Shown: positions 8,967-54,743 of the stretch, one piece after another | Numbering within the stretch: position 1 is the first letter of the stretch | Layout: each line of letters begins with the position of its first letter | Assembly (NCBI GenBank): GCA_015067075.1 | Contig: SVND01000002.1 | Location: forward strand, 10,087-74,086 | DNA: 64,000 bases | Origin: Oscillospiraceae bacterium | GTDB lineage: Bacteria; Bacillota; Clostridia; Oscillospirales; SIG530 | Direction of reading: 5' to 3' | Translations under genes and position numbers: made by a program | The notes under the pieces: generated by a model | Databases searched by the model: none | What the model was told of the DNA's origin: nothing | Seen by the model: only the letters and a program-made list of their open reading frames with translations

Positions 8967-10085
8967 ATGGTCGAATTTGATGAAATAAGACTGAAAATAG
9001 CGGCATACAAGCAACAGCTCGAAGAACTTGCTTTAGCGCTTGGACTTGAAAAAATGAAGGCAGAGATAGCGGAGCTTGAACAGCAATCTGCCGCTGAAGA
9101 TTTCTGGATGGATCTTGAAAACTCACAAAAGGTTTTACAGAGAACGAAAATGCTCAAAAACGCTGTTGAGGATTATGACAAGCTTTACGGCGAATGGGAG
9201 GATGCAGGGGCGCTTTGCGAGCTTGGCGACGAAACGGAGGATCTTTCCGTGCTTGACGAGGTGGTTGAAGCTTTTGCAGGCGTTGAAAAGCGCCTGGAGG
9301 AAAAACGCCTTGAAACTTTGTTGTCGGGTGAATACGATAAGAATAATGCCATTCTCAACTTTCATGCAGGTGCAGGCGGCACAGAAGCGCAGGATTGGGC
9401 TGAAATGCTTTACCGTATGTATACGAGATGGGCTGAACGTCACGGCTATAAGATAAAAGTGCTTGACTATCTTGACGGTGATGAAGCGGGTATGAAGAGT
9501 GCGTCGCTCCTTATCGAAGGAAACAACGCTTTCGGATATCTCAAATCCGAGGCAGGCGTACACCGTCTTGTCCGTGTTTCACCCTTTGACTCTTCAGGCA
9601 GACGTCACACATCCTTTGCATCCGTTGAGGTAATGCCTGAAATGGATGATGACGTTGAGATCGAGATCCGCGACGAAGATCTTAAGGTCGACACTTATCG
9701 AAGCAGCGGTGCAGGCGGTCAGCACGTTAACAAAACAGAATCGGCTATCCGTATAACGCATATTCCCACGGGTATCATTGTTGCTTGCCAGAACGAGCGA
9801 AGCCAGCATCAAAACCGTGAAATGGCGATGCGTATGCTCAAATCCAAGCTTATGGAGATAAAAGAGCGCGAGCATCTTGACAAGATCGAGGATATCAAGG
9901 GCGATCAGAAGGAGATCGGCTGGGGTTCGCAGATACGTTCCTATGTATTTATGCCCTACACCCTTGTAAAGGATAACAGAACGGGATTTGAAAGCGGAAA
10001 TATCGGCGCAGTAATGGACGGCGATCTTGACGGATTTATAAACGCATACCTTAAAGCTATGAACCTTGGCGAGCTTAATAACTAA
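8967..10085 (+). CDS. prfB: peptide chain release factor 2 (single continuous ORF, no programmed frameshift)
   Basis: SPF tripeptide (VRVSPFDSSGRRHTSF) and GGQ motif (SGAGGQHVNKTESAIRITH). 372 aa in one frame. Confidence 0.95.
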   Translation: MVEFDEIRLKIAAYKQQLEELALALGLEKMKAEIAELEQQSAAEDFWMDLENSQKVLQRTKMLKNAVEDYDKLYGEWEDAGALCELGDETEDLSVLDEVVEAFAGVEKRLEEKRLETLLSGEYDKNNAILNFHAGAGGTEAQDWAEMLYRMYTRWAERHGYKIKVLDYLDGDEAGMKSASLLIEGNNAFGYLKSEAGVHRLVRVSPFDSSGRRHTSFASVEVMPEMDDDVEIEIRDEDLKVDTYRSSGAGGQHVNKTESAIRITHIPTGIIVACQNERSQHQNREMAMRMLKSKLMEIKEREHLDKIEDIKGDQKEIGWGSQIRSYVFMPYTLVKDNRTGFESGNIGAVMDGDLDGFINAYLKAMNLGELNN

Positions 10086-12896: not shown

Positions 12897-13244
12897 ATGG
12901 TAATCGAAAAAAGCAAATATAAAACGGACGCAAGAAAAAATATGAAGGGCGGCGACGGAACAGTTTATGTAACGGAATTCGTTTCCTCCGCCGAGCTTAA
13001 CGAAAAGGGCAGACTTTTCGGAAATATCCATCTTGACCCCGGCGCATCTATCGGATATCATGTCCATGAAGGCGAAAGCGAGCTTTTCTACATTATTAAA
13101 GGAGAAGCTATATATAACGATAATGGTACAGAATATCCTCTTTGCGAAGGTGATACTGCTGTCGTTACTTCAGGGAACGGTCATAGTATCGCAAACAAAG
13201 GCACTGAGCCTGTTGACCTTATTGCGCTTATCCTTTACGCATAG
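12897..13244 (+). CDS. cupin domain protein
   Basis: GYHVHEGESELFYIIKGEA..GDTAVVTSGNGHSIAN matches the two cupin His-containing motifs. Good AAGGAG RBS. Confidence 0.75.
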   Translation: MVIEKSKYKTDARKNMKGGDGTVYVTEFVSSAELNEKGRLFGNIHLDPGASIGYHVHEGESELFYIIKGEAIYNDNGTEYPLCEGDTAVVTSGNGHSIANKGTEPVDLIALILYA

Positions 13245-13267
13245 TCTGTAATGGTGACATAATAATA

Positions 13268-13297
13268 CAAAAAGAGCAAGAGAAATCTTGCTCTTTT
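13268..13297. terminator. bidirectional intrinsic terminator
   Basis: AAAAAGAGCAAGA-gaaa-TCTTGCTCTTTTT between convergent genes. Confidence 0.8.
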
Positions 13298-13307
13298 TAT
13301 ATATAAT

Positions 13308-14615
13308 TTAATTTTTAGTTGAAATTGCGGCGCCGAAAGCGGCTTCTTCTTTGTTCAAAGGCATTTCCAAGGTCATATGGAAGCGAGAAGCAAACATTTC
13401 GCGGGTGACGTGACTTTTACGAATGCCGTTTCCCGAAGCTATAAGCTTTGTGGGTACACTCTCAAGCAACGGGAGAATTTTTTCATATGTATCGTAAAGC
13501 TCGTTTACCGTTCCCTCCAAAACGCCGACGACAAAATGAGTAGCTGTAAAATTAGAGGTGGAAATGCCGCTTACCGTGCCGCGCAGGGCTGGATTTTCGC
13601 GAGTGCCTGCAAATAAGGTGGAAAAATCAAGTTTTTCTGTTAAAGTGTCGTATTGCTCCGACAGCTTATCCATGGCGTCGTAAAGGCGCTTATCGTCACA
13701 GCCTGCCATTTTCAGCACGTCGCGGAAAAAGCCTTCAAGTATCTGATAAGCTCTGCCGCCGCAAAGAGAAGCACCGACAAGGATGAACTTGTCTCCATTA
13801 AGAGGACGCACGTCGATTCCCGATACGGATTGTGCGGATAAAGCTGTTTCGCCGTTAACGGCGACAGATATCTGACTTCCCGTGCCGACGTTTATGAGAA
13901 TGCTGTTTTCGCTGTCGCTTACAGAACCGAGAAAGCTCGCTTGATTATCGCCTATAGCGGTGAAAACCGTGGCGTTTTTAAGCTTGCCAAGGGGCGAAAT
14001 ATTGCGGACTACCTTTGGGAAAAATGAAGGAGAAATCCCTGCTCTTTTTGCGGCGGCAAGGTCAAATTCGCATTTTTCAATATCGAAAATCCCTAAACTT
14101 GCGGCATCGGAAGCGTGCATTACGGGAAAATTGTTTCCTGCAAGTTTCATGGCGATGTAATCGTGAATTGTGAGGAAGAAAACGGCGTCATTGGGTACTA
14201 AACCGTTTTCCATATTGTAAAAATGCGTTACCGTGCCGTAGCCTGTGGCGAGGCGATAGCCGGATATGCAGGCAAGCTTTTGAGCGTAGGACATATCACC
14301 GCAAAGCTCGTCGCCTCTGCCGTCCTGCCACGTATACAGCGGGCTTACGGCTTTACCGTTTATATCGGTATATAGAATACCGTGCATTTGCCCTGTAACG
14401 CCGATATGGGTGACATCGTACTTTGCCAAAAGGTCGTTTACAATGGCGATAGCTTTGTTTTCGATAACGGTAACGTCCTGTATGCGCTCAAAGCTGTCAC
14501 TGCTTTCGATAAAAGCGTTGCTTTCCGTGTTAACAGTTTCCATAACGCAGTTTTTGTTATCGACCACAACGGCGCAGATCGTAGTTGTTCCTATATCAAT
14601 GCCTAATTTATACAT
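13308..14615 (-). CDS. FGGY-family carbohydrate kinase (sedoheptulokinase-like)
   Basis: ASKHA N-terminus MYKLGIDIGTTTICAVVVD, ..GVTGQMHG.., ..INVGTGSQIS.., C-terminus ..ASGNGIRKS..EEAAFGAAI. The start lies 16 nt after the GRE stop, so the gene is in the same operon. Confidence 0.8.
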   Translation of the reverse strand: MYKLGIDIGTTTICAVVVDNKNCVMETVNTESNAFIESSDSFERIQDVTVIENKAIAIVNDLLAKYDVTHIGVTGQMHGILYTDINGKAVSPLYTWQDGRGDELCGDMSYAQKLACISGYRLATGYGTVTHFYNMENGLVPNDAVFFLTIHDYIAMKLAGNNFPVMHASDAASLGIFDIEKCEFDLAAAKRAGISPSFFPKVVRNISPLGKLKNATVFTAIGDNQASFLGSVSDSENSILINVGTGSQISVAVNGETALSAQSVSGIDVRPLNGDKFILVGASLCGGRAYQILEGFFRDVLKMAGCDDKRLYDAMDKLSEQYDTLTEKLDFSTLFAGTRENPALRGTVSGISTSNFTATHFVVGVLEGTVNELYDTYEKILPLLESVPTKLIASGNGIRKSHVTREMFASRFHMTLEMPLNKEEAAFGAAISTKN

Positions 14616-14631
14616 ATCGTCAGCCTTTCAA

Positions 14632-16986
14632 TTACATTTGTGTCGAGGAGGGGTCAAGTCGGGTGATAATATCTTTCTGAATGGCGGGAGAAAGGTCAAG
14701 GAAGTTGACGAAAGTGCCATGAATTCGCATAATATAAACACCGCTTGGAGCATATTTTTTAGGATTTGCAAGAACCTTGCGAAGCATATCCGCTGTCGTT
14801 ACGTTAACATACAGATAGAAGGGTGAAACGGTGTCTTTGTTCGAGCTGTTGAAAAACAAAGGAGCGATAACACGGGAAGCAAATTGCTCGCCCTTTTCCT
14901 CGTAGGTAGCACCTGTGAAATATTTCGGGTCGACACCGAAATGCGATGCATAGCCGCCGTTCATTTTTTCATAGGGCAGCTTGAAGGCGGAAAGCATGCG
15001 GAAGCCAAGTCCGTTTTGTGCATCGCCGTAAAGAGGGTCGACACCGTAATTGAGCATATCGCGGGAATGTCTTCCGTCAGGCGTTGCACCGACCCAATAG
15101 CCGTAAAGCAAGTGGGTGGAGGGTGTGCTGTAATCGGGGCGGAAGGCGTTTCCAAGATAGTTTTTCTTTGAAGCAATAAGGTCGGCTATCTTATCGGCAA
15201 TCTCCGATGCTTTTTCATCAACCTCGGAGATATTGTTTCCGAACTTAGGATATGTCGCAAGGAGCTGACGAAGAGGCTCGTCGTCCTTGAAATCGGTCAT
15301 AAGAGCGCTTACAAGCCTGTCTGCGCCGTCGGGATTCTCATTTATGTAATGCTTTACAGCGATAAAGGAGTCAGCAACGACTGAAAGACCGTGGATGAGA
15401 CAGCCGTTTCCGTTATATTTTGTTCCCTGGTGCTCGGGATCGCGCATATCGTAGCCGCTTTCAATGCCGCCCATAAGCGTTGACAAAAGCGGTACACGAA
15501 GATGGGAAAGAGCCTTTGCCGCGCCGTTTGCGGCTTCAGTCATTTTATCGGCATAGAATTCAGCGTTTGCATAGAAAAGATCTTCAAGCCGTTCAAGGCG
15601 TTCCTTGGCGGAAAGCCCTGTAGGCTCAGCAAGGCGCTCGCCCGTTATCTCGGAAATACCGTCTGTAATAGTGAGCTCTAAAATCTTTCCGAGATTAAAC
15701 CAGCTGCTTGTTGTATTTCCGTTGTCCTTGCCCATAATGAGCGGCTCCTGGCAACCTGCGATGGAATAATCGGGAATATCAGCTTCATCCACGCCGGCGC
15801 GCTTTAAAACGGCAAACATGGCGTCGTCGTTGAAAAGGGAAGGGGTGAGAGTGCCGGGCGTGAAGAAAAAGCGTCCCATGGCGCGATAAAGCTCATTTGG
15901 CGTGTTTTTATGAAGCTTTACGGAAAGAATGGGCTGTGGCAAATTCATGTCGTAGTAAGCGTCCATGAGCGCGTAGGAGCATTCGTTTGTAAGGTCGTTG
16001 CCTTTTGTATCCATGCCTGAAATGATAATATTTTGAGAAATTGCCCAGCTTCTGTCGCCAACGTTGAAAAACACGAGGAAGTGGCGGAAATAAGCGGCGG
16101 CAGTATCGCGGCTGCAATTTTCCATGGCGCGATAAGGCTCAAAAATGCGGTCCGCATTACCGACGGAGAAGGCAAAGGGATTGGGCGCTTGCTCGATGCA
16201 CATAAGCTGCCAGATGAGCATAAAGGACTGAATGGCCTCGTAAAGAGTGCTTGCACCGTTTTCGGGTACACGTTCAAGCGTTGCAATAAGCTTTTCAAGC
16301 TCCGCCCTGCGCTGATCGTCAGCCGTTTCAAGCTGAGTCTTGGCAAGCTCGCCGTAGCGGCGTGCAAGCACACGGGCGGCACTTAAGGCGACAGCCATAG
16401 CCGTGAAATTATCGCGGCGCACAGCGTCTTCTTCAGCGGAGGCTTTAGCTTCAAGCTCGCTTATAATGGCGCCGATACCGCATTTTAAAATGGGACGGAT
16501 GTCGGGAATAACGTGGCCCGTTACCTGCTCGATGAAAAAGCAGACCTCTTTCGTATAGTCTGTAACACCGTCGTAAACAGCGGAAAGATCGCGAACGTAA
16601 GGCGTAGCTTCGTTATAATCGCGGAGAGCTTTGATTCGCTCCTTGGTAAATTCACCATTGGGCTCAATGTCGTCGAAAACAGCCGTAGGGTCGCAGTAGC
16701 CGCAGAAGGATTCAACGGTGAATGAGGGGTTTATAAGCGCGTAGCTTCGTGCAAATGCATCGGACTGCGAGCCTGCAAAAATTGCGTTTTCGCTAAGACG
16801 CAGGGGAAGCGCTTCAGCTACACGAACAAGTGTGTGTGCCTTTTTAAGCTCCTGTGTCATGCCTGCAAAATCGCTGTCGCATTGACGTTCTATCTCTTTA
16901 ATAATAAACCAACCGTCAAGGCGCATGGTTGAATGCTCTTCATTAAAAAGAAGCTTTGCTTTTTCGATAATTCTGTTTGTATTCAT
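14632..16986 (-). CDS. pyruvate-formate-lyase-like glycyl radical enzyme, uncharacterised clade
   Basis: 784 aa. The C-terminal glycyl-radical domain VYIMRIHGTFVNFLDLSPAIQKDIITRL aligns with the PFL pattern ..RVSGYAVRF..QQDVITR (Gly757, codon 14716-14718). Thiyl loop SIAGCQEPLIMG (Cys412, codon 15751-15753). Confidence 0.9.
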   Translation of the reverse strand: MNTNRIIEKAKLLFNEEHSTMRLDGWFIIKEIERQCDSDFAGMTQELKKAHTLVRVAEALPLRLSENAIFAGSQSDAFARSYALINPSFTVESFCGYCDPTAVFDDIEPNGEFTKERIKALRDYNEATPYVRDLSAVYDGVTDYTKEVCFFIEQVTGHVIPDIRPILKCGIGAIISELEAKASAEEDAVRRDNFTAMAVALSAARVLARRYGELAKTQLETADDQRRAELEKLIATLERVPENGASTLYEAIQSFMLIWQLMCIEQAPNPFAFSVGNADRIFEPYRAMENCSRDTAAAYFRHFLVFFNVGDRSWAISQNIIISGMDTKGNDLTNECSYALMDAYYDMNLPQPILSVKLHKNTPNELYRAMGRFFFTPGTLTPSLFNDDAMFAVLKRAGVDEADIPDYSIAGCQEPLIMGKDNGNTTSSWFNLGKILELTITDGISEITGERLAEPTGLSAKERLERLEDLFYANAEFYADKMTEAANGAAKALSHLRVPLLSTLMGGIESGYDMRDPEHQGTKYNGNGCLIHGLSVVADSFIAVKHYINENPDGADRLVSALMTDFKDDEPLRQLLATYPKFGNNISEVDEKASEIADKIADLIASKKNYLGNAFRPDYSTPSTHLLYGYWVGATPDGRHSRDMLNYGVDPLYGDAQNGLGFRMLSAFKLPYEKMNGGYASHFGVDPKYFTGATYEEKGEQFASRVIAPLFFNSSNKDTVSPFYLYVNVTTADMLRKVLANPKKYAPSGVYIMRIHGTFVNFLDLSPAIQKDIITRLDPSSTQM

Positions 16987-17000
16987 ATACGTCAGCCTTT

Positions 17001-17873
17001 CTAAGTTTTTATAAGGTTAAAACTGTTTTGTTTCATAATATCAGAAAAAATTTTGAGCGATTGCGCAGGAACGTAAGCATCGTCAGTCATTGTGTAATCA
17101 TAGCCGCATTGTTGCCACTTGACACGGCCGAAATCGTGGAAGGTAAGAAGCTCAACGGTGAAAAGTTCTTTATCCAAGGAGCTTAAAAATTCTGCGGTAG
17201 CCAATGCGTTTTCCTCATCGCAGTTGTAGCCGTTTACAAGGGGAATGCGTACGTTTACCTTTTTGCCGGATTTGACGGCGGTGCGGATATTCGCAAAAAT
17301 ATTGTCGCAAGGTACGCCTGTAACGGCAAGGTGACGGGCAGGCACGGCAAGCTTAAGGTCCATCATCAGATTATCGATGAAGGGGAAAAGGCTCGGTAAA
17401 AGCGGATGCGTACCGTTTGTTTCCAAGGCTGTGTTTATGCCTTCGCCGTGCAGTTTTTGCAAAACAGCCTTCAGCGGTTCAAACTGCATCGTAGGCTCAC
17501 CGCCTGTGAAGGTAACGCCGCCTCCGTCGAAAAACATGGGCGATGCGCCGTGCACCTGCGAAATGACGTCGCTGATGTCAAGGTGTTCGCATTTGACGAA
17601 GATGCCCTTACTGCGATTGAGCGTAAGGCACGGTCTGTCGCCGCAGCTTTCGCACATCGTTCGGTCGAGCACCCTGTTGGCTATAGCGCCCTTGGGACAA
17701 AGCTCGTCACAAATCAGCTTCTGATCGGTCATTATTGGCGCTGATGCGTGCATCCCTTCGGGGTTTGCGCACCACGGACAGCGCATATTACAGCCTTGTA
17801 AATGGAAAACAAGCCTGTTGCCGGGGCCGTCCTGAGAATAATTAAAGCCTTTTTCGAATACCTTTAGTTTCAC
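17001..17873 (-). CDS. glycyl-radical enzyme activating protein (radical SAM)
   Basis: CNMRCPWCANPE (C28-x3-C32-x2-C35), a GGGVTFTGGEP SAM-binding motif, and a Cys-containing insert (CDELCP..CESCGDRPC). Ends 14 nt before the GRE start. Confidence 0.9.
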   Translation of the reverse strand: MKLKVFEKGFNYSQDGPGNRLVFHLQGCNMRCPWCANPEGMHASAPIMTDQKLICDELCPKGAIANRVLDRTMCESCGDRPCLTLNRSKGIFVKCEHLDISDVISQVHGASPMFFDGGGVTFTGGEPTMQFEPLKAVLQKLHGEGINTALETNGTHPLLPSLFPFIDNLMMDLKLAVPARHLAVTGVPCDNIFANIRTAVKSGKKVNVRIPLVNGYNCDEENALATAEFLSSLDKELFTVELLTFHDFGRVKWQQCGYDYTMTDDAYVPAQSLKIFSDIMKQNSFNLIKT

Positions 17874-17905: not shown

Positions 17906-17924
17906 TAGTTCATGCTGTGAACTA
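17906..17924. promoter_or_regulatory. perfect 7-5-7 inverted repeat TAGTTCA-tgctg-TGAACTA upstream of the GRE operon (candidate operator or 5'-UTR hairpin)
   Basis: Read directly from the sequence. It lies 33-51 nt upstream of the activase start codon. A possible minus-strand promoter (TTGTAC-17-TATAAT at 18008..17980) lies upstream of it. Confidence 0.3.
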
Positions 17925-18009
17925 TATCTATATAATATTGTACACCAAAATCGAAAAAAATGCAATAGTATTTTAATATATTATACATTAAAAATTTGAA
18001 ACGTACAAG

Positions 18010-18046
18010 ATGAAAAAAGAAAAAAGCTGTCGTAATGACAGCTTTT
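18010..18046 (-). terminator. intrinsic terminator after the thioredoxin-like gene
   Basis: AAAAGCTGTC-attac-GACAGCTTTT followed by a T-rich run on the minus strand. Confidence 0.75.
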
Positions 18047-18049
18047 AAA

Positions 18050-18649
18050 CTATTCGGTTATCATTTTTATGCCGTTAACAAGGCTGTTATAGCTGAGCAT
18101 ACCGTTTCCGTGAGCGACGAGCTCACCGTCACTGTTGATGAAATAGGTGATTGGAAAGGCTGAAACGTAATAAGCTTTGACGGCGTTCAGCTCCGTATCG
18201 TAGAAAACATCGAAGTCAAACTGCTGCTGTTCCACGTATGACTTTGCCTTTTCCATTGTTTCGCGAGTTCCGTCTGTGGCGTTGACCATGACGAACTGTA
18301 CGTCGGGGAAGTCCTTATATGCCTGATTGAAATCTGGCATTTCCTCTCGGCAATAGTAGCACCATGTAGCCCAAAAGTTTATAACGATGGGCTTGCCCTT
18401 GAAATCAGACAGCTTTACCTCGTTCCCATCAGCATCCAAAACGGTAAAATCAGGTGCGGAAAACTCCACGGCAGCATCGTCTTCGTCACTGTCGTCGCTT
18501 TCTGCGGGGGCAGGTGTTTCCGTAGGTGTGCTTTCAATGAGATTGTTGCCCGTATAGTCGTCGCTGTATTTATTATAAAGTACGGCGGCAACGGTGATGA
18601 CGGCGACTAAAAGCACGGCGATAATTATCCATTTAATTGTGTTTTTCAT
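18050..18649 (-). CDS. membrane-anchored TlpA/ResA-like thiol-disulfide oxidoreductase
   Basis: N-terminal TM helix and a thioredoxin-fold motif VINFWATWCYYCREEMP (CxxC). Confidence 0.85.
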   Translation of the reverse strand: MKNTIKWIIIAVLLVAVITVAAVLYNKYSDDYTGNNLIESTPTETPAPAESDDSDEDDAAVEFSAPDFTVLDADGNEVKLSDFKGKPIVINFWATWCYYCREEMPDFNQAYKDFPDVQFVMVNATDGTRETMEKAKSYVEQQQFDFDVFYDTELNAVKAYYVSAFPITYFINSDGELVAHGNGMLSYNSLVNGIKMITE

Positions 18650-18659
18650 ATAAAACTCC

Positions 18660-19319
18660 TTATGAAAGCAAAGCTAAAAACTTTCCGAAAAGCCCTGTTG
18701 CCATCAGAGCGCCGACAATGATGAGCAAAGCTCCGCTTACGATGTTGATTATATTATAATGCTTTTTGATAAAGGTAAAAGCGGTTTTCAGCTTGTCGAT
18801 CAAAATTGCGCTGATGAAAAAGGGAATACCAAGCCCTAACGAGTAAAGCAAAAGCATGATGATGCCCTGCATGATACTGCCTTGGCTTGCGGCGAGCATA
18901 AGAGCCGAGCCTAAAAACGCGCCGACGCACGGCGTCCAGCCAACGGAAAAAACTATTCCAAAAAGCAGGGAGGAGAAAAAGCCTAAATTTTCCGTCTTGG
19001 CAAAGCCCATACCTTTAAAGAGACTGAGCTTGAAAACGCCGAGAAAATGTAAACCGAAAAATATGACGATAAGTCCCGTAACGATGTTGACGGCTGTTTT
19101 GTGTTCGCTTAAAAGCTTGCCGAAGGTGGAAGCGAGAACGCCGAGGAGGATGAAAACAACTGTAAAGCCGAGGATGAAGCCGAGGGCGTTGATCACGGTC
19201 TTCTTCGTGCTTTTTTCCTTGCCGCCTGCAAAATATGAAACGTAGATGGGGAGCATTGGCAAAAGACAGGGCGAGATGAAGGTGATAATACCTTCTAAAA
19301 ATGAAATGAAATATTGCAT
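18660..19319 (-). CDS. ccdA: cytochrome c biogenesis protein CcdA / DsbD-family thiol-disulfide transporter
   Basis: Six-TM protein with FISPCLLPMLPIY and GWTPCVG Cys motifs. Adjacent to the TlpA-like gene. Confidence 0.85.
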   Translation of the reverse strand: MQYFISFLEGIITFISPCLLPMLPIYVSYFAGGKEKSTKKTVINALGFILGFTVVFILLGVLASTFGKLLSEHKTAVNIVTGLIVIFFGLHFLGVFKLSLFKGMGFAKTENLGFFSSLLFGIVFSVGWTPCVGAFLGSALMLAASQGSIMQGIIMLLLYSLGLGIPFFISAILIDKLKTAFTFIKKHYNIINIVSGALLIIVGALMATGLFGKFLALLS

Positions 19320-19463: not shown

Positions 19464-20225
19464 TTAATCTTCGTTAAATCTTGCGAGGAAAGCTTTTGTA
19501 CGGGCGTTCGTCGGATTGTCAATAACATCGTGGGGATTACCCTGCTCGATGATATAACCGCCGTCCATGAAGATAACGCGGTCTGATACGTCGCGGGCAA
19601 AAGCCATTTCGTGAGTTACGATGACCATCGTCATTTTTTCATGGGCGAGCTGTTTGATAACCTTTAAAATTTCACCTGTAAGCTCCGGATCGAGAGCACT
19701 TGTGGGCTCGTCGAAAAACAGAATATCGGGGCTCATGGCAAGGGCGCGCGCTATGGCGACACGCTGCTGCTGACCGCCCGAAAGCTGATAGGGATAGGAA
19801 TCGGCCTTGTCGGAAAGACCGACTTTTTCTAAAAGCTCCAACGCGTTTTTATGCGCTTGCTCAGCGGGCAACTTTGCCACGTGAATTGGAGCTTCCGTTA
19901 AGTTTTGAAGCACGGTCATATGGGGAAACAGGTTGAAATTCTGGAAAACGAGACCGAATTTACGCTTTGCCGCACGTTGCTTTTCAGCATCGGCGTAAAT
20001 GCTCTTGCCGTTTACATCGCGGCAGATCTCAGTATCTCCGTAGCGTATACTGCCCTTATCGGCGCGCTCAAGCAGAGTACAACAGCGCAGAAGCGTTGAT
20101 TTACCTGAGCCTGACGGACCGATTATGGATAAGACCTCGCCCTTATCGATGGAGAAGGAGATGTCCAAAAGGACATCAACATTGCCGAAGGATTTAGAAA
20201 GATTTTCAACATTCAATACATTCAT
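19464..20225 (-). CDS. amino acid ABC transporter ATP-binding protein
   Basis: [13 protein letters not shown] Walker [16 protein letters not shown] signature, [14 protein letters not shown] Walker B. GlnQ/ArtP-like. Confidence 0.9.
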
Positions 20226-20237
20226 GGGCGTTTGTTC

Positions 20238-20882
20238 CTATCTATAATATGACAGCTTTTTCTCCGCAACGTTAAAGCATTTCGATACGACGGCATTCAT
20301 AATGAGATAGAATACACCTGCAATAACGATTGGAATGATGCTGACAAGCTGAGTTTGTAATCTTTCGGCGACACGTGTAATCTCGATAACGCCGATTATC
20401 TTCGCCAAGGAGGTATCTTTAACGAGCGTCATAAACTCGTTTCCCATGGGCGGAAGCACCTTTTTTATAACCTGGGGAAGAATTATTTTAAAAAACGTCT
20501 GCGTCTTTGTAAATCCAAGCACGCTTGCAGCTTCGCGCTGTCCCACGGGGATGCTTTCGATGCCGCCGCGGTATATTTCGCAAAAATATGCGGCGTAGTT
20601 AAGTCCAAAGGCGATCATTGCAGTTTGCATACGGCTAAAGCCCATAGCGCCAAGTCCGACGAACCAGAAAAATATGAGCTGTAGCATTAAGGGCGTACCC
20701 CTCATGACGAGAAGGTACGCTCTTATTATGTATTGCAACGGTGCAAATTTAGACATTCTGCCCAACGCAAGGATAAGACCCAAGGGCAATCCTATAAGAA
20801 GCGTTGCGCCAAACAGCGAGAGCGTTTCCAAGGAAGCTTCGCAAAGCTGTTTGCATATGTTCAACAATACATCAATGTTCAT
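20238..20882 (-). CDS. amino acid ABC transporter permease (His/Glu/Gln/Arg/opine family)
   Basis: Five-TM permease with EAA-like loop ..GIESIPVGQREAASVLGFTKTQTFFKIILPQ.. Confidence 0.9.
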   Translation of the reverse strand: MNIDVLLNICKQLCEASLETLSLFGATLLIGLPLGLILALGRMSKFAPLQYIIRAYLLVMRGTPLMLQLIFFWFVGLGAMGFSRMQTAMIAFGLNYAAYFCEIYRGGIESIPVGQREAASVLGFTKTQTFFKIILPQVIKKVLPPMGNEFMTLVKDTSLAKIIGVIEITRVAERLQTQLVSIIPIVIAGVFYLIMNAVVSKCFNVAEKKLSYYR

Positions 20883-20887
20883 TTCTG

Positions 20888-21739
20888 TTAGTTCTTAGCA
20901 GCGTCCTCAAGCTCTGTAAGGTGCTCAATGTAGTAACGAGCAACGATCTCGTCCATGATGACGACGTCGCCTGTGCCGTTTGCAAGCTCATACATAGCAA
21001 GAACGTTGTTTTCAACTTCAACAGCTTCTGCAAGGGAATCCTTAACAGCGGCGTTGCCTGCGAGAGCGTCAACAGCTGTGGAGCCTGCCTGTAAAACGGC
21101 AGTCTTTCCTGCAAGGTCAGCAAGAGTGCTGATGGGAGAGCTCTTGAGAGCTACAACTACCTGACGGTTAGCCATGTAGGATTCGCTAAGGTTCATAGCT
21201 TCTGCACGTGTTTCGTTGATCGTCATACCGTTCCAGATGCAGTCGATGTTGCCTGCGTTAAGCTCGCTGACGTTCTGAGCCCAAACGATAGGCTGAAGAA
21301 CAAGCTCGACGCCCATTCTCTTGCAAACTTCCTTAGCAAGGTCGATGTCGAAACCGATGATTTCGCCGTCCTTGTTGTAGCCCATGGGCGGGAAGCTATC
21401 GTCAAGACCGAGGATGAATTTGCCGGCTTCCTTAACCTTTGTCAAAGAGCCGTCATCTTCTGTTGCTGTGGGTACAAATGTGTCGGGAACTGTTGTAACG
21501 TCTGCGCCGAACCATGTGTTGGAGATGGAAGCGAGAGTGCCGTCAGCCTTCATTTCGCAAAGGATGCGCTGAACTTCGTCGCGAAGTGAGCAGTCAGCCT
21601 TACGGAAACCGATACCGTACTGTTCATCAGCAAGAGTTTCGTCGAGAACCTTGTATTCGCGAGCTGTCTGACCTGAGCAGCCTGCGAACATTACTGCGAT
21701 AAGGAGCATCGCAAGAACGAGTGAGAGAATTTTTTTCAT
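20888..21739 (-). CDS. amino acid ABC transporter substrate-binding lipoprotein
   Basis: Lipobox MKKILSLVLAMLLIAVMFAGC-SG and a family-3 SBP core (..GFDIDLAKEVCKRMG..DCIWNGMTI..). Confidence 0.9.
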   Translation of the reverse strand: MKKILSLVLAMLLIAVMFAGCSGQTAREYKVLDETLADEQYGIGFRKADCSLRDEVQRILCEMKADGTLASISNTWFGADVTTVPDTFVPTATEDDGSLTKVKEAGKFILGLDDSFPPMGYNKDGEIIGFDIDLAKEVCKRMGVELVLQPIVWAQNVSELNAGNIDCIWNGMTINETRAEAMNLSESYMANRQVVVALKSSPISTLADLAGKTAVLQAGSTAVDALAGNAAVKDSLAEAVEVENNVLAMYELANGTGDVVIMDEIVARYYIEHLTELEDAAKN

Positions 21740-52475: not shown

Positions 52476-54743
52476 TTATTCGAAATTGGCTTCCTCTTTA
52501 TCCTTGCGAAGCTGCTCGGACATGGACTGTATCTGAATGAGCTTGTAATACTTGCCCTTGAGTGCCATAAGCTCCTCGTGTGAGCCGTTTTCGATTATTT
52601 CACCCTTGTCAACAACGATGATCTTGTTTGCTTTGCGCAAGGTGGAAAGACGGTGAGCTATCATGAGTGTCGTTCTGCCGCTTATCAAACGCTCAATAGC
52701 TGTTTGAATGAGGTTTTCCGTCTCAGAGTCAACGGCGGCGGTAGCTTCGTCGAAAATGAGTATGCTGGGATTTTTAAGCACGGCACGGGCAATGGAAAGA
52801 CGCTGCTTTTCACCGCCTGAAAGACCTACGCCGCGCTCGCCGAGCATGGAATCATACGCATCGGGTTGAAGAGCGATGAAGCCGTGGGCGTTGGCGACGG
52901 TTGCGGCGTGCATGACGGCCTCAACAGGCGCGTCGGGAACGCCGTATGCGATGTTGTTGAAGATGGTGTCGGAGAACATCATGGGCTCTTGCTGAACGTA
53001 GCCGATACGGGAGCGGTAGTATTCCATATCAATATCGCGGATGTCCTTGCCATCCATAAGAATTTCACCGTCGTAATGGTCGTAAAAGCGCATGATAAGG
53101 TTTATCAAGGTGGATTTACCTGAGCCTGTCGTTCCGACGATACCGACTATGTCACCGGGCTCAATAACGAGATTGATGTTGGAAAGGACTTTTTTTGTAC
53201 GGTCGAAGGAGAAATTTACGTTGCGGAACTCAATTTTGCCTTCAATCTTTTCGGGAATGTTGCCCTTTTGGAAATCGTGCTCAGGCTCTGTGTCGAGGAT
53301 ATCGAGAACACGCTCTGCCGATGAAAGAGCACCTTGATAAGAGTCGCTGAGGTTAGCAAAGAAGTTTACGGGACCGTAGAACATACTTGTATACGAAATA
53401 AAGGAAACAAGTATACCTGCGGAAAGTGCAGCGCCGTTTGAATCAATTACCCAATTGCCGCCCACAAGCCAGATAAGTAAAGAGCCGCAGGTAATAACGA
53501 AGGAGACGATGTTGGGGAAAACGGTTGTGATACGCGCGGAGCGGATATCGACCTTGCGCCATTCATCGTTGTATTTTTCAAAGCGGGAAACTGCACGCTG
53601 CTCGCCTGCAAAGGATTTGATAACGCGCACGCAGGGGATAGTGTCGGTAAGCACCGATGTAACGGCAGACCAGCGACGCCATATTCTGCGGTAGAAGGGT
53701 GCAATTTTTCTGCCGAAAATACGTGCACCGATTACGACGAAGGGAACGGGAATAAGGGAAAGCAGAGAAAGCTTCCAGTTCATGGCGAACATTATGGCAA
53801 TAATTCCGACCATAAGGAAAAACTGAACGACAACTTCCTGAGAAATTCGGAGCATGAAGCCCTGAATGGTTGCCGTGTCGCCGCTGATACGGTTGATAAC
53901 GGAGCCTGTGGAGGTCTTATCGTAAAACTTCATGGGCAGATACTGCGCTTTGCGGTAAACGTCGTTTCGCAGGTCACGAACGATGTTGTCGCCCGATACG
54001 CGAAGCATATAGCCGCGGAATACACCGATAAGATGCTGGACAATATACGTGCCGAAAAGCACGAGTACGACGATGTTGAGCATTTCTTTATTGTTATTGG
54101 GAAGAATATCGTCAACGAGGATACTCGTAATGTACGGCGGAACGAGCGCCATACCCGTGGTTATAAGGGAAAGTAAAAGGGAAAACAGAAGACGGCCGGT
54201 TTCGGGCTTGACGTATTTAAGCAGCTTTCCTGCAAGATTTTTCTTTGACTGACACTGTATGCAGTCTGCGCCGGGACGCAAAAGCGTGCGTCCGCATTTG
54301 GGACAAACGCTCATCATTTTTTCATAAGTAGCATCAACAATGTCAAGCTCCTCTGCCAGATCAGCTGTGCCTGTGCTCATATGCTCAATGAACAAAGCGG
54401 CGGCATCGCAAAGTGATGCGACGGCGTAAGTGGAGCGGAATGCTTTGCATTTTTCTCCCGATTTGAACGTAACGCTCAGACGGGCATTACCGTACATGCG
54501 CTTGACCTCGATCTTTTCAACGTCGGTATGTACATAAGCGCGGATTCCGCCGTCGAGAGATGCATCTGTGACGAAAAAGCGTTTTTCGCTGACGAACAAA
54601 ACTGTTTGCGCGTATTTTCCGTCAAGACCGAGATCGCCTACAACGGCAAAAAGCACGGATTCGCCGCTGTCAAGCTGCTTTGTGACCAAGGATAATGCTT
54701 GCTGCGGTATTGGTCTGTTGGTAATAGGTGATTTCTCCTCCAT
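52476..54743 (-). CDS. ABC exporter (fused TMD-NBD, MsbA-like) with ~170-aa N-terminal PH-like + zinc-ribbon extension
   Basis: NBD motifs GTTGSGKST, LSGGEKQRLSIARAV, ILIFDEATAAVD. Six-helix TMD. The N-terminal extension ..ESVLFAVVGDL..VLFVSEKRFFV.. is PH-like, followed by CPKCGRTLLRPGADCIQC. Confidence 0.88.
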   Translation of the reverse strand: MEEKSPITNRPIPQQALSLVTKQLDSGESVLFAVVGDLGLDGKYAQTVLFVSEKRFFVTDASLDGGIRAYVHTDVEKIEVKRMYGNARLSVTFKSGEKCKAFRSTYAVASLCDAAALFIEHMSTGTADLAEELDIVDATYEKMMSVCPKCGRTLLRPGADCIQCQSKKNLAGKLLKYVKPETGRLLFSLLLSLITTGMALVPPYITSILVDDILPNNNKEMLNIVVLVLFGTYIVQHLIGVFRGYMLRVSGDNIVRDLRNDVYRKAQYLPMKFYDKTSTGSVINRISGDTATIQGFMLRISQEVVVQFFLMVGIIAIMFAMNWKLSLLSLIPVPFVVIGARIFGRKIAPFYRRIWRRWSAVTSVLTDTIPCVRVIKSFAGEQRAVSRFEKYNDEWRKVDIRSARITTVFPNIVSFVITCGSLLIWLVGGNWVIDSNGAALSAGILVSFISYTSMFYGPVNFFANLSDSYQGALSSAERVLDILDTEPEHDFQKGNIPEKIEGKIEFRNVNFSFDRTKKVLSNINLVIEPGDIVGIVGTTGSGKSTLINLIMRFYDHYDGEILMDGKDIRDIDMEYYRSRIGYVQQEPMMFSDTIFNNIAYGVPDAPVEAVMHAATVANAHGFIALQPDAYDSMLGERGVGLSGGEKQRLSIARAVLKNPSILIFDEATAAVDSETENLIQTAIERLISGRTTLMIAHRLSTLRKANKIIVVDKGEIIENGSHEELMALKGKYYKLIQIQSMSEQLRKDKEEANFE

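Follow-up and report, generated by a model that had tools for sequence, protein, structure and literature searches.

Which reaction is carried out by a glycyl radical enzyme (GRE) that is encoded together with a sugar kinase? This question is raised by an operon in a 64,000-nucleotide stretch of DNA from an Oscillospiraceae bacterium (assembly GCA_015067075.1, contig SVND01000002.1, positions 10,087 to 74,086 of the forward strand), here called the window. Three genes on the minus strand, separated by gaps of 14 and 16 nt, encode a radical S-adenosylmethionine (SAM) activase, a GRE of the pyruvate formate-lyase (PFL) type and an FGGY-family carbohydrate kinase:

17001..17873, minus strand: activase gene, 290 amino acids, GTG start, GGAG 7 nt upstream
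14632..16986, minus strand: GRE gene, 784 amino acids
13308..14615, minus strand: gene of the FGGY-family carbohydrate kinase, 435 amino acids

We report that the GRE is the founding type of a family marked by the motifs RIHGTF in the Gly loop and AGCQEP in the Cys loop. The family is a large variant within the GREs and not a new kind of system. As to function, we put it at about an even call that the genes encode a working GRE system with a Cys-x-Glu pair and a catalytic His. It would be the core of a sugar-catabolic module in which the GRE breaks a C-O bond of a neutral, sugar-like substrate and the kinase then phosphorylates the product. Radical formation, C-O cleavage, the order of GRE before kinase and the class of substrate are what we infer; the assignment to sugars or polyols rests on gene context.

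A glycyl radical enzyme with unusual Gly and Cys loops

The barrel domain of GREs (PF02901) matched residues 21-629 of the protein with an E-value of 6e-103. The GRE is 100% identical to a deposited hypothetical protein of a Ruminococcaceae metagenome-assembled genome (MAG). Its closest relative in the PDB is the glycerol dehydratase of C. butyricum (phmmer, E 8e-62). A HMMER alignment of the two proteins equated G757, C412, E414 and H158 of the GRE with G763, C433, E435 and H164, respectively. The Cys loop was aligned with GC433VE435P and the Gly loop with RVAG763Y. The predicted catalytic residues are encoded at these positions:

14710..14727, minus strand: Gly loop R754-I-H-G757-T-F759; the codon of G757, the predicted radical site, is at 14716..14718
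15742..15759, minus strand: Cys loop A410-G-C412-Q-E414-P415, with C412 as predicted thiyl site and E414 as predicted general base
16513..16515, minus strand: His158 in the motif EQVTGH, equivalent to His164 of glycerol dehydratase, the proposed acid for the leaving group

The Cys loop has no second Cys as in PFL.

Next to sequence, structure was considered. An AlphaFold2 (AF2) model was built on an alignment of 54 sequences which spanned the wider GREs. It replaced an earlier model from 16 sequences of a single family, which had a predicted local distance difference test score (pLDDT) of 71 and Cys and Gly loops of low confidence. The new model (pLDDT 92.1, predicted template modelling score 0.93) places C412 at the tip of a hairpin (407-410/414-417) and G757 at the tip of another one (752-755/758-761). 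In the predicted structure these are the classical Cys and Gly finger loops. A full-length Foldseek search with the model retrieved glycerol dehydratase (1r8w) at a template modelling (TM) score of 0.86 and 25% identity, and the propanediol, hydroxyproline, choline and isethionate enzymes, PflD and YbiW at TM 0.82-0.86. The 50 best matches listed were all GREs. By fold, C-terminal Gly, Cys finger loop and dedicated activase the protein thus belongs to the PFL-like division.

Are the odd loops a sign of decay? RIHGTF was present in 119 of 120 database homologues and in 81 of 83 GREs from GTDB loci. The corresponding figures for AGCQEP were 120 of 120 and 81 of 83, and EQVTGH was found in all 120 database homologues. 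Overall identity among the homologues, across families, is only about 64%. Because the odd loops were kept at this level of identity, the GRE is not a degenerate copy. In the alignment of 54 diverse GREs, G411 and C412 were invariant and H158, E414, R754 and G757 were conserved to at least 90%.

The Pfam model for the C-terminal domain (Gly_radical, PF01228) did not match the C-terminus at E<=0.01, and all 120 homologues carried PF02901 only. A weak match to GrcA (E 2e-4) was noted. The published fingerprint of the Gly loop is RVxG[FWY]x6-8[FL]x4Qx2[IV]x2R (PMC13450708). The GRE's C-terminus reads R-I-H-G-T-F-V-N-F-L-D-L-SPAI-Q-KD-I-IT-R, i.e. R, G, L, Q, I and R of the fingerprint are kept. 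The failure of PF01228 supports an atypical Gly loop.

Much of this had been proposed in a first-pass annotation made from the DNA letters. Its gene coordinates and gaps were exact. The 784-residue GRE of PFL fold which it postulated is borne out by PF02901, the AF2 model and Foldseek. It had singled out RIHG757TF as an atypical Gly loop; the motif was found again, PF01228 gave no match and RVxG[FWY] is broken. Similarly, the replacement of Val by Gln in the thiyl loop AGC412QE414P turned out to be a property of all 120 homologues. A structural inspection around C412 and E414, which it had suggested, led to the hairpin tips described above.

Extent and borders of the family

Family loci were collected with two family-specific peptide patterns in a collection that holds one genome per species. 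In species-representative genomes, a relative of the GRE is encoded at no fewer than 514 confirmed loci, and metagenomic sequences of the family run into the thousands. Most hosts are MAGs of Acutalibacteraceae, Oscillospiraceae and other Clostridia; their samples came from humans, ruminants, chickens, termites and digesters. Hosts not labelled as MAGs include Christensenella tenuis NSJ-35 and 'Bacterium 1XD8-76'.

The family has a sharp edge. An exhaustive search of representatives at 50% identity returned full-length relatives at 59% and 56%. Then followed isolated intermediates, P0246 at 43%, P0248 at 40%, P0250 at 36% and P0257, P0261 and P0263 at 31-33%, and the bulk of GREs at about 30%. 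In an alignment with E. coli PflD and YbiW the intermediates and the family shared a clade signature consisting of AGCQEP, R[VI]HG and TPSTH, a two-residue insertion in EQxPNP[FY]AFS and an 11-residue deletion before A[IV]SQN. The loops of generic GREs, PflD and YbiW read GC[VI]E and RVAGYS instead. Beyond the clade signature the window family has RIHGTF, GKDNGNTTNSW, GGYASHFG and an insertion of three residues ahead of the Gly loop. It forms a long branch: against glycerol dehydratase the window GRE scored 212 bits and P0257 479 bits. With a family profile instead of the single sequence, the score of the GRE against this best solved relative rose to 281 bits.

One intermediate stands apart. 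In P0248 the catalytic Cys is lost; VVGDELP replaces IAGCQEP and RVPGA replaces RIHGT. Its sequence suggests a GRE paralogue which is non-catalytic or has been re-purposed.

Is the family identical with a characterised one? The GRE reached 248.9 bits with the PFL2/glycerol dehydratase subfamily model TIGR01774 (cutoff 678.2) and 181.9 bits with the PflD-type equivalog NF007437 (cutoff 1109). For the NCBIfam equivalogs of HypD, sulfopropanediol dehydratase and CutC the values were 179, 174 and 136 bits against cutoffs of 1100, 1000 and 1050. A 2026 review of GREs covers formate lyases, decarboxylases, X-succinate synthases, C-O, C-N and C-S eliminases, the isomerases HplG, YbiW and PflD, and aminoacyl radical enzymes; it has no characterised class with RIHGTF/AGCQEP motifs or with a GRE-kinase gene context (PMC13450708). 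A search of the open-access literature found no paper on the RIHGTF/AGCQEP family or on a GRE-FGGY pairing. No curated model or solved structure covers the family. Of the conditions that would have spoken against the first-pass reading, none that could be checked by computation was borne out. Clustering with a characterised enzyme was not seen, the closest being at 25% identity and all NCBIfam equivalogs far below cutoff. The motifs of the GRE are not those of a known class, since GC[VI]E and RVAGY are the loops of glycerol and propanediol dehydratases, HypD, E. coli PflD and YbiW.

A reduced activase

The activase exceeded the cutoff of TIGR02494 (190.4 versus 174.35 bits) and matched PF04055 (Radical_SAM) and PF13353 (Fer4_12). 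Two Cys-rich elements are encoded:

17769..17792, minus strand: CX3CX2C motif CNMRCPWC, residues 28-35, which binds the SAM-cleaving [4Fe-4S] cluster; checked in the translation
17628..17711, minus strand: reduced ferredoxin-like insert C55-x3-C59-P...C74-x2-C77-x4-C82, i.e. CDELCP (55-60) and CESCGDRPC (74-82)

The insert contains five Cys residues (55, 59, 74, 77 and 82), and C95 lies just past it. The motifs and the Cys count agree with the initial description of a CNMRCPWC activase with a reduced insert. From sequence, five Cys are enough for at most one auxiliary cluster. How do the relatives compare? Among 67 parsable activases of the family, 58 have a spacer of 31-50 residues between CX3CX2C and GGGVT with 0-2 Cys, which resembles the PFL activase. 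The other nine, that of the window included, have an insert of about 80 residues with one CP...Cx2Cx3-4C set. Nearly all GRE activases except those of PFL and ribonucleotide reductase (RNR) carry eight extra Cys (PMC13450708). The RIHGTF/AGCQEP family is thus unusual among GREs of the Cys-x-Glu type because its activases are devoid of the eight-Cys domain.

Possibly these peculiarities indicate chemistry outside the eliminase/isomerase scheme, e.g. epimerisation, C-C bond cleavage or redox-neutral rearrangement of a sugar, with a different handling of the radical. The long branch would fit, as would the Gly loop RIHGTF with its preceding three-residue insertion and the GGYASHFG segment, both unique, and the 58 of 67 activases that dispense with a domain present in nearly all non-PFL, non-RNR activases (PMC13450708). 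Yet the triad C412/E414/H158 of eliminases and isomerases is strictly kept and a PFL-like second Cys is missing. We consider such chemistry improbable.

Gene neighbourhood of the family

Open reading frames (ORFs) were called and clustered in 80 genome loci and re-checked with tblastn; denominators below are the loci with enough sequence. The activase was directly upstream of the GRE in 72 of 75 loci and the FGGY kinase directly downstream in 65 of 74. In 43 of 68 loci the kinase was directly followed by a protein of 352 amino acids, which occurred anywhere in the locus in 45 of 68. This is a cupin resembling type-I mannose-6-phosphate isomerase (PMI). It scored 84 bits with TIGR00218 (cutoff 116) and matched B. 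subtilis PMI (1qwr) with E 4e-23; the metal motifs QAHPD, E and H are kept. A NagC/Mlc-like regulator of the ROK family was upstream of the operon, usually divergent, in 15 of 70 loci. About 20 other loci have the minimal three-gene form of the window. Many loci are located among housekeeping genes, e.g. of pyrimidine biosynthesis. Annotated recurrent neighbour families included no genes of the phosphotransferase system (PTS).

Individual loci differ. In Christensenella tenuis the order is URO-D/MtaA-like gene, activase and GRE, and behind these come genes for a CUT2 monosaccharide ABC transporter and a Zn-dependent polyol-type dehydrogenase. URO-D/MtaA-like genes (PF01208) were seen near GREs of three sub-clades. 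They are immediately upstream in C. tenuis (L063, 7767-9041) and in the contig of P0246 (L083, 3-443) and a few genes away in two loci of the P0250-type sister clade described below (L096, 2309-3433; L098, 3368-4495). As partners of the system they were discarded; none occurred in the other 79 family loci. In another locus (L074) the activase-GRE-kinase-PMI module is immediately followed by a second GRE of canonical type (RV[GS]GFS) with its own eight-Cys activase.

The kinase matched FGGY_N (PF00370, E 5e-23) and FGGY_C (PF02782, E 9e-9), so both FGGY domains expected from the initial reading are present. The catalytic motif GDNQAS is at residues 222-227. No equivalog cutoff of NCBIfam was reached (XylB 114 of 380 bits, gluconokinase GntK 86 of 649, GlpK 61-68 of 498-590). 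Among solved structures its relatives are glycerol kinases and xylulokinases, all of them distant (E 1e-9 and weaker). Homologues at 47-52% identity are named 'sedoheptulokinase' by JGI and 'FGGY family carbohydrate kinase' by NCBI. Characteristic substrates of FGGY kinases are ketoses, polyols or sugar acids and not locked pyranoses.

Is the pairing of GRE and kinase restricted to the window family? GREs of the P0250 type, with 36% identity to the window GRE, carry AGCQEP and RVHGMS. In four of four independent contexts of this sister clade (L084, L096/97, L098/99, L100/101) GRE, FGGY kinase and activase occur together. The kinase passes the cutoff of the XylB xylulokinase equivalog (513-539 versus 380 bits), and the two-ferredoxin insert of the activase is complete. 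Sugar ABC transporters of the CUT1 or CUT2 type, a ROK regulator and two small cupins adjoin in some contexts. Since GRE, ketose-type FGGY kinase, cupin and ROK regulator recur here, the pairing is older than the window family. A metagenome scan with P0250 returned eight loci; the six that were complete enough to check were generic GREs, none with AGCQEP and most with RVAGYS. In itself the sister clade amounts to a further uncharacterised module, of a 'radical pentose-like' kind. The association with a kinase, first noticed in the window, is accordingly kept in homologous loci and beyond.

An isomerase, a kinase and a radical enzyme side by side loosely recall sulfoglycolytic gene clusters. 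The GRE might then be a C-S or C-N lyase for a sulfo- or amino-sugar, e.g. desulfonating a ketose derived from sulfoquinovose, with isomerase and kinase as in sulfoglycolysis. GREs of the Cys-x-Glu type do include the C-S lyases IslA and HpsG and the C-N lyase CutC (PMC13450708). C-S lyases, however, bind the sulfonate by two Arg and one Gln (R189, Q193 and R678 in IslA; PMC13450708). By extrapolation from the phmmer offset (query 160 corresponds to IslA 195), R189 and Q193 correspond to Q154 and H158 of the GRE, the latter being the dehydratase-type His. Sulfite exporters or reductases and deaminases were not noticed among the neighbours that recur. Such a lyase function thus has only a slim chance.

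Proposed reaction and order of the steps

A Cys-x-Glu motif defines the class of GRE 1,2-eliminases and GRE isomerases (PMC13450708). The initial assignment as an eliminase-type GRE stands in so far as Cys-x-Glu and the equivalent of His164 are near-universal in the clade, but sequence cannot separate an eliminase from the newer isomerase class. For the window we propose the following. The activase would use the [4Fe-4S] cluster at its CX3CX2C motif and SAM to take a hydrogen from G757. The glycyl radical would then generate a thiyl radical on C412, which would take a hydrogen from a hydroxyl-bearing carbon of the substrate. E414 would deprotonate the substrate hydroxyl and H158 would protonate the vicinal oxygen leaving group, either water or an ether oxygen. 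The C-O bond would break as it does in glycerol dehydratase and in the ring-opening isomerases YbiW and PflD, and a carbonyl compound, a 2-ketose or deoxy-ketose, would be formed. The substrate most likely is a neutral sugar derivative beyond ordinary isomerases, e.g. an alditol, an anhydro-alditol or a sugar blocked at C1. The FGGY kinase, sedoheptulokinase-like here and a xylulokinase in the sister clade, would phosphorylate the product at a terminal hydroxyl. The PMI-like cupin and the ROK repressor, the former present in most genomes (43 of 68 loci) and the latter in 15 of 70 loci, would complete the module.

Does the GRE act before or after the kinase? We favour the GRE first because FGGY enzymes are kinases of ketoses, polyols and sugar acids and because the xylulokinase of the sister clade is located beside an importer. 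The latter argues that the substrate of this kinase is a ketose made by the GRE and not the imported compound. In the opposite order the kinase would phosphorylate an imported or internal sugar, and the GRE would cleave a C-O bond in the sugar phosphate, in catabolism or for removal of a sugar phosphate that is a toxic dead end. An internal metabolite would fit the scarcity of transporters and the housekeeping surroundings of most loci, and many invariant Arg, Lys and His residues of the family could bind phosphate. Above all, the only characterised sugar-acting GREs, YbiW and PflD, use 6-phosphates (PMC13450708). Against it, one would have to assume an FGGY kinase which accepts a locked pyranose, and an XylB-type xylulokinase beside an importer would make little sense if the imported compound were the kinase substrate. 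Further, the GRE is not close to YbiW and PflD (19-23% identity) and an FsaA-type aldolase is not linked. We regard phosphorylation as the first step as unlikely, though as the most serious competitor.

Several points weigh against our preferred reading, C-O cleavage by the GRE followed by phosphorylation. The strict fingerprint RVxG[FWY] is broken, with I for V and T for the aromatic residue, and PF01228 is silent. The name 'sedoheptulokinase' is an automated JGI label only. A linked transporter is missing from the window and from most family loci, and a search of the window and of the 80 family loci gave no homologue of FsaA. The PMI-like isomerase would have no obvious job if the product of the GRE were a 1-deoxy-ketose. 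Finally, YbiW and PflD represent the opposite order (PMC13450708).

In a wider perspective, the data may point to a widespread, unrecognised radical route of sugar utilisation in at least 500 species of anaerobic Clostridia. A GRE of a new class would turn an otherwise inert neutral sugar derivative into a ketose which a dedicated FGGY kinase traps. The RIHGTF loop and the mostly ferredoxin-less activases would then represent a new mode of recognition between GRE and activase. We advance this tentatively, as somewhat less probable than the reaction proposed for the window itself.

Transcription unit and a candidate operator

Signals around the operon were examined next:

18046..18022, minus strand: strong terminator of the upstream thiol-disulfide oxidoreductase gene
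17937..17965, minus strand: candidate promoter TTGCAT-17 nt-TACAAT, read directly, upstream of the activase
17907..17923, minus strand: candidate operator, the perfect palindrome AGTTCA-N5-TGAACT, just downstream of the -10 box
13265..13302, minus strand: intrinsic terminator at the operon end, a 17-pair stem and T run just after the kinase stop, which also serves a convergent cupin gene

Close gene spacing and terminators at both ends mark activase, GRE and kinase as a discrete transcription unit. The spacers before the GRE (16987-17000) and before the kinase (14616-14631) contain an identical ribosome-binding context of 11 nt, AAAGGCTGACG, ahead of ATG. This common AAAGGCTGACG suggests matched translation-initiation regions. 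A generic promoter scan missed the candidate promoter because its -35 hexamer is weak. A riboswitch or leader RNA was considered and rejected: an Rfam scan in and around the operon yielded no family at threshold, and the sub-threshold matches concerned the terminator hairpin only.

In the window alone the palindrome is not significant, with at least one match in 21 of 100 shuffled sequences. The same layout of -35 box, -10 box and palindrome was found upstream of the activase in three distant relatives (L007, 8939-8953; L010, 8987-9001; L056, 8997-9011), all three with a divergent ROK gene. The palindrome is probably a conserved operator for a ROK-family repressor. Across the 64 kb of the window, genes for the PMI-like protein, a ROK regulator and the 224-aa accessory protein were not found, i.e. 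only the three-gene core is present. A ROK repressor whose gene is located elsewhere in the genome probably controls the operon. The earlier statement that the operon encodes no transporter or regulator is thus correct for the window, but has to be supplemented by the conserved candidate operator.

Other genes in the window

The kinase and a cupin of 115 amino acids (12897..13244, plus strand) are encoded convergently and have a common terminator. The cupin has a single domain and matched PF07883, and PF01050, the C-terminal domain of type-II PMI, exactly at cutoff. The gene attracted attention since most relatives carry a PMI-like cupin at the same end of the operon. As a stand-in for the PMI-like gene it was rejected. 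None of the 80 related loci has a counterpart, and the cupin is therefore probably unrelated to the operon.

Directly upstream of the operon (18050-19319, minus strand) are genes for a ResA/TlpA-like thiol-disulfide oxidoreductase with a signal anchor and for a polytopic membrane protein. The latter, 219 amino acids at 18660..19319, reads as putatively CcdA-like. An amino-acid ABC transporter follows beyond it at 19464-21739. All of these are unrelated to the GRE unit, from which the terminator separates them. A second GRE in the window was ruled out; an ORF of 755 amino acids at 52476..54743 is an ABC exporter and not a PFL. Many bacteria use a programmed +1 frameshift for prfB. The release-factor gene of the window (8967-10085, plus strand) is a single uninterrupted ORF of 372 amino acids with SPF and GGQ motifs (RF2-type) and has no sign of such a frameshift.

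Significance

GREs carry out chemically hard steps of anaerobic metabolism. Each newly assigned GRE family has revealed a gut-relevant pathway, e.g. from choline to trimethylamine and those of hydroxyproline, isethionate and anhydroglucitol. With a substrate assigned, Oscillospiraceae, Acutalibacteraceae and Christensenellaceae, abundant and poorly understood anaerobes of gut and rumen, would gain a carbohydrate pathway. The specificity between GREs and activases and the purpose of the ferredoxin-like domains are both listed as open questions in the 2026 review (PMC13450708). The non-canonical Gly loop together with activases that have zero or one auxiliary cluster makes the family a test case for both. 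As an abundant, strongly conserved and compact module it is a good experimental target, and the candidate regulator and operator could reveal the inducer.

Comparison with known systems

The glycerol dehydratase (1r8w/1r9d) and the propanediol dehydratases (5i2g, 9rco) have the same 10-stranded barrel as the window GRE, with full-length TM scores of 0.84-0.86. As in these enzymes, a Gly at a hairpin tip, Cys-x-Glu and a His equivalent to His164 are present and a separate radical-SAM activase is encoded next door. Identity is only 22-25%. Does the operon then encode an ordinary glycerol/diol module, i.e. a B12-independent glycerol or propanediol dehydratase with a glycerol kinase? The best solved relatives of GRE and kinase are indeed glycerol dehydratase and glycerol kinases. 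But identity to glycerol dehydratase is no higher than 25%, and the scores with TIGR01774 (249 of 678 bits) and the GlpK models (61-68 bits versus cutoffs of 498-590) are far too low. The Cys loop is GCQEP instead of GCVEP, the Gly loop RIHGTF instead of RVAGY and GGYASHFG replaces NGTLFNQKF. The two-residue insertion (EQxPNPF) and the 11-residue deletion before AISQN, shared by the clade, are located around active-site strands. S282 and D447 of glycerol dehydratase, which we take to be the ligands of the glycerol C3-OH, are A272 and T426 in the GRE. The partner genes in the operon and its family, a sugar kinase, a PMI-like isomerase and a ROK sugar regulator, also differ from those of glycerol dehydratase. 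We reject the glycerol module as very improbable.

YbiW and PflD provide the precedent for GREs in sugar catabolism. They are C-O lyases of 1,5-anhydroglucitol-6-phosphate and 1,5-anhydromannitol-6-phosphate in "anhydroglycolysis" (PMC13450708). Like the window GRE they have Cys-x-Glu and the His, and they cleave a C-O bond to yield a ketose derivative; a phosphorylation step in the same pathway is also common to both. Identity is 19-23%, and the loops of the E. coli enzymes are GCVEL or GCIET and RVAGYS, in contrast to AGCQEP and RIHGTF. Their E. coli contexts involve phosphorylation by the PTS and an FSA aldolase downstream, whereas the window has a soluble FGGY kinase.

The PFL-activating enzyme shares the radical-SAM core with CX3CX2C and, like 58 of 67 family activases, has no ferredoxin-like insert. 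Unlike PflA, the window activase retains a Cys-rich remnant of about 28 residues which could hold one auxiliary cluster. It scored 137.7 bits with the PflA model (cutoff 231.75) and best with the general model TIGR02494.

With the FGGY kinases XylB, glycerol kinase and sedoheptulokinase the window kinase has both FGGY domains and the GDxxA motif in common. It is short, 435 amino acids compared with about 480-500, and its position in the operon is typical of a catabolic sugar kinase.

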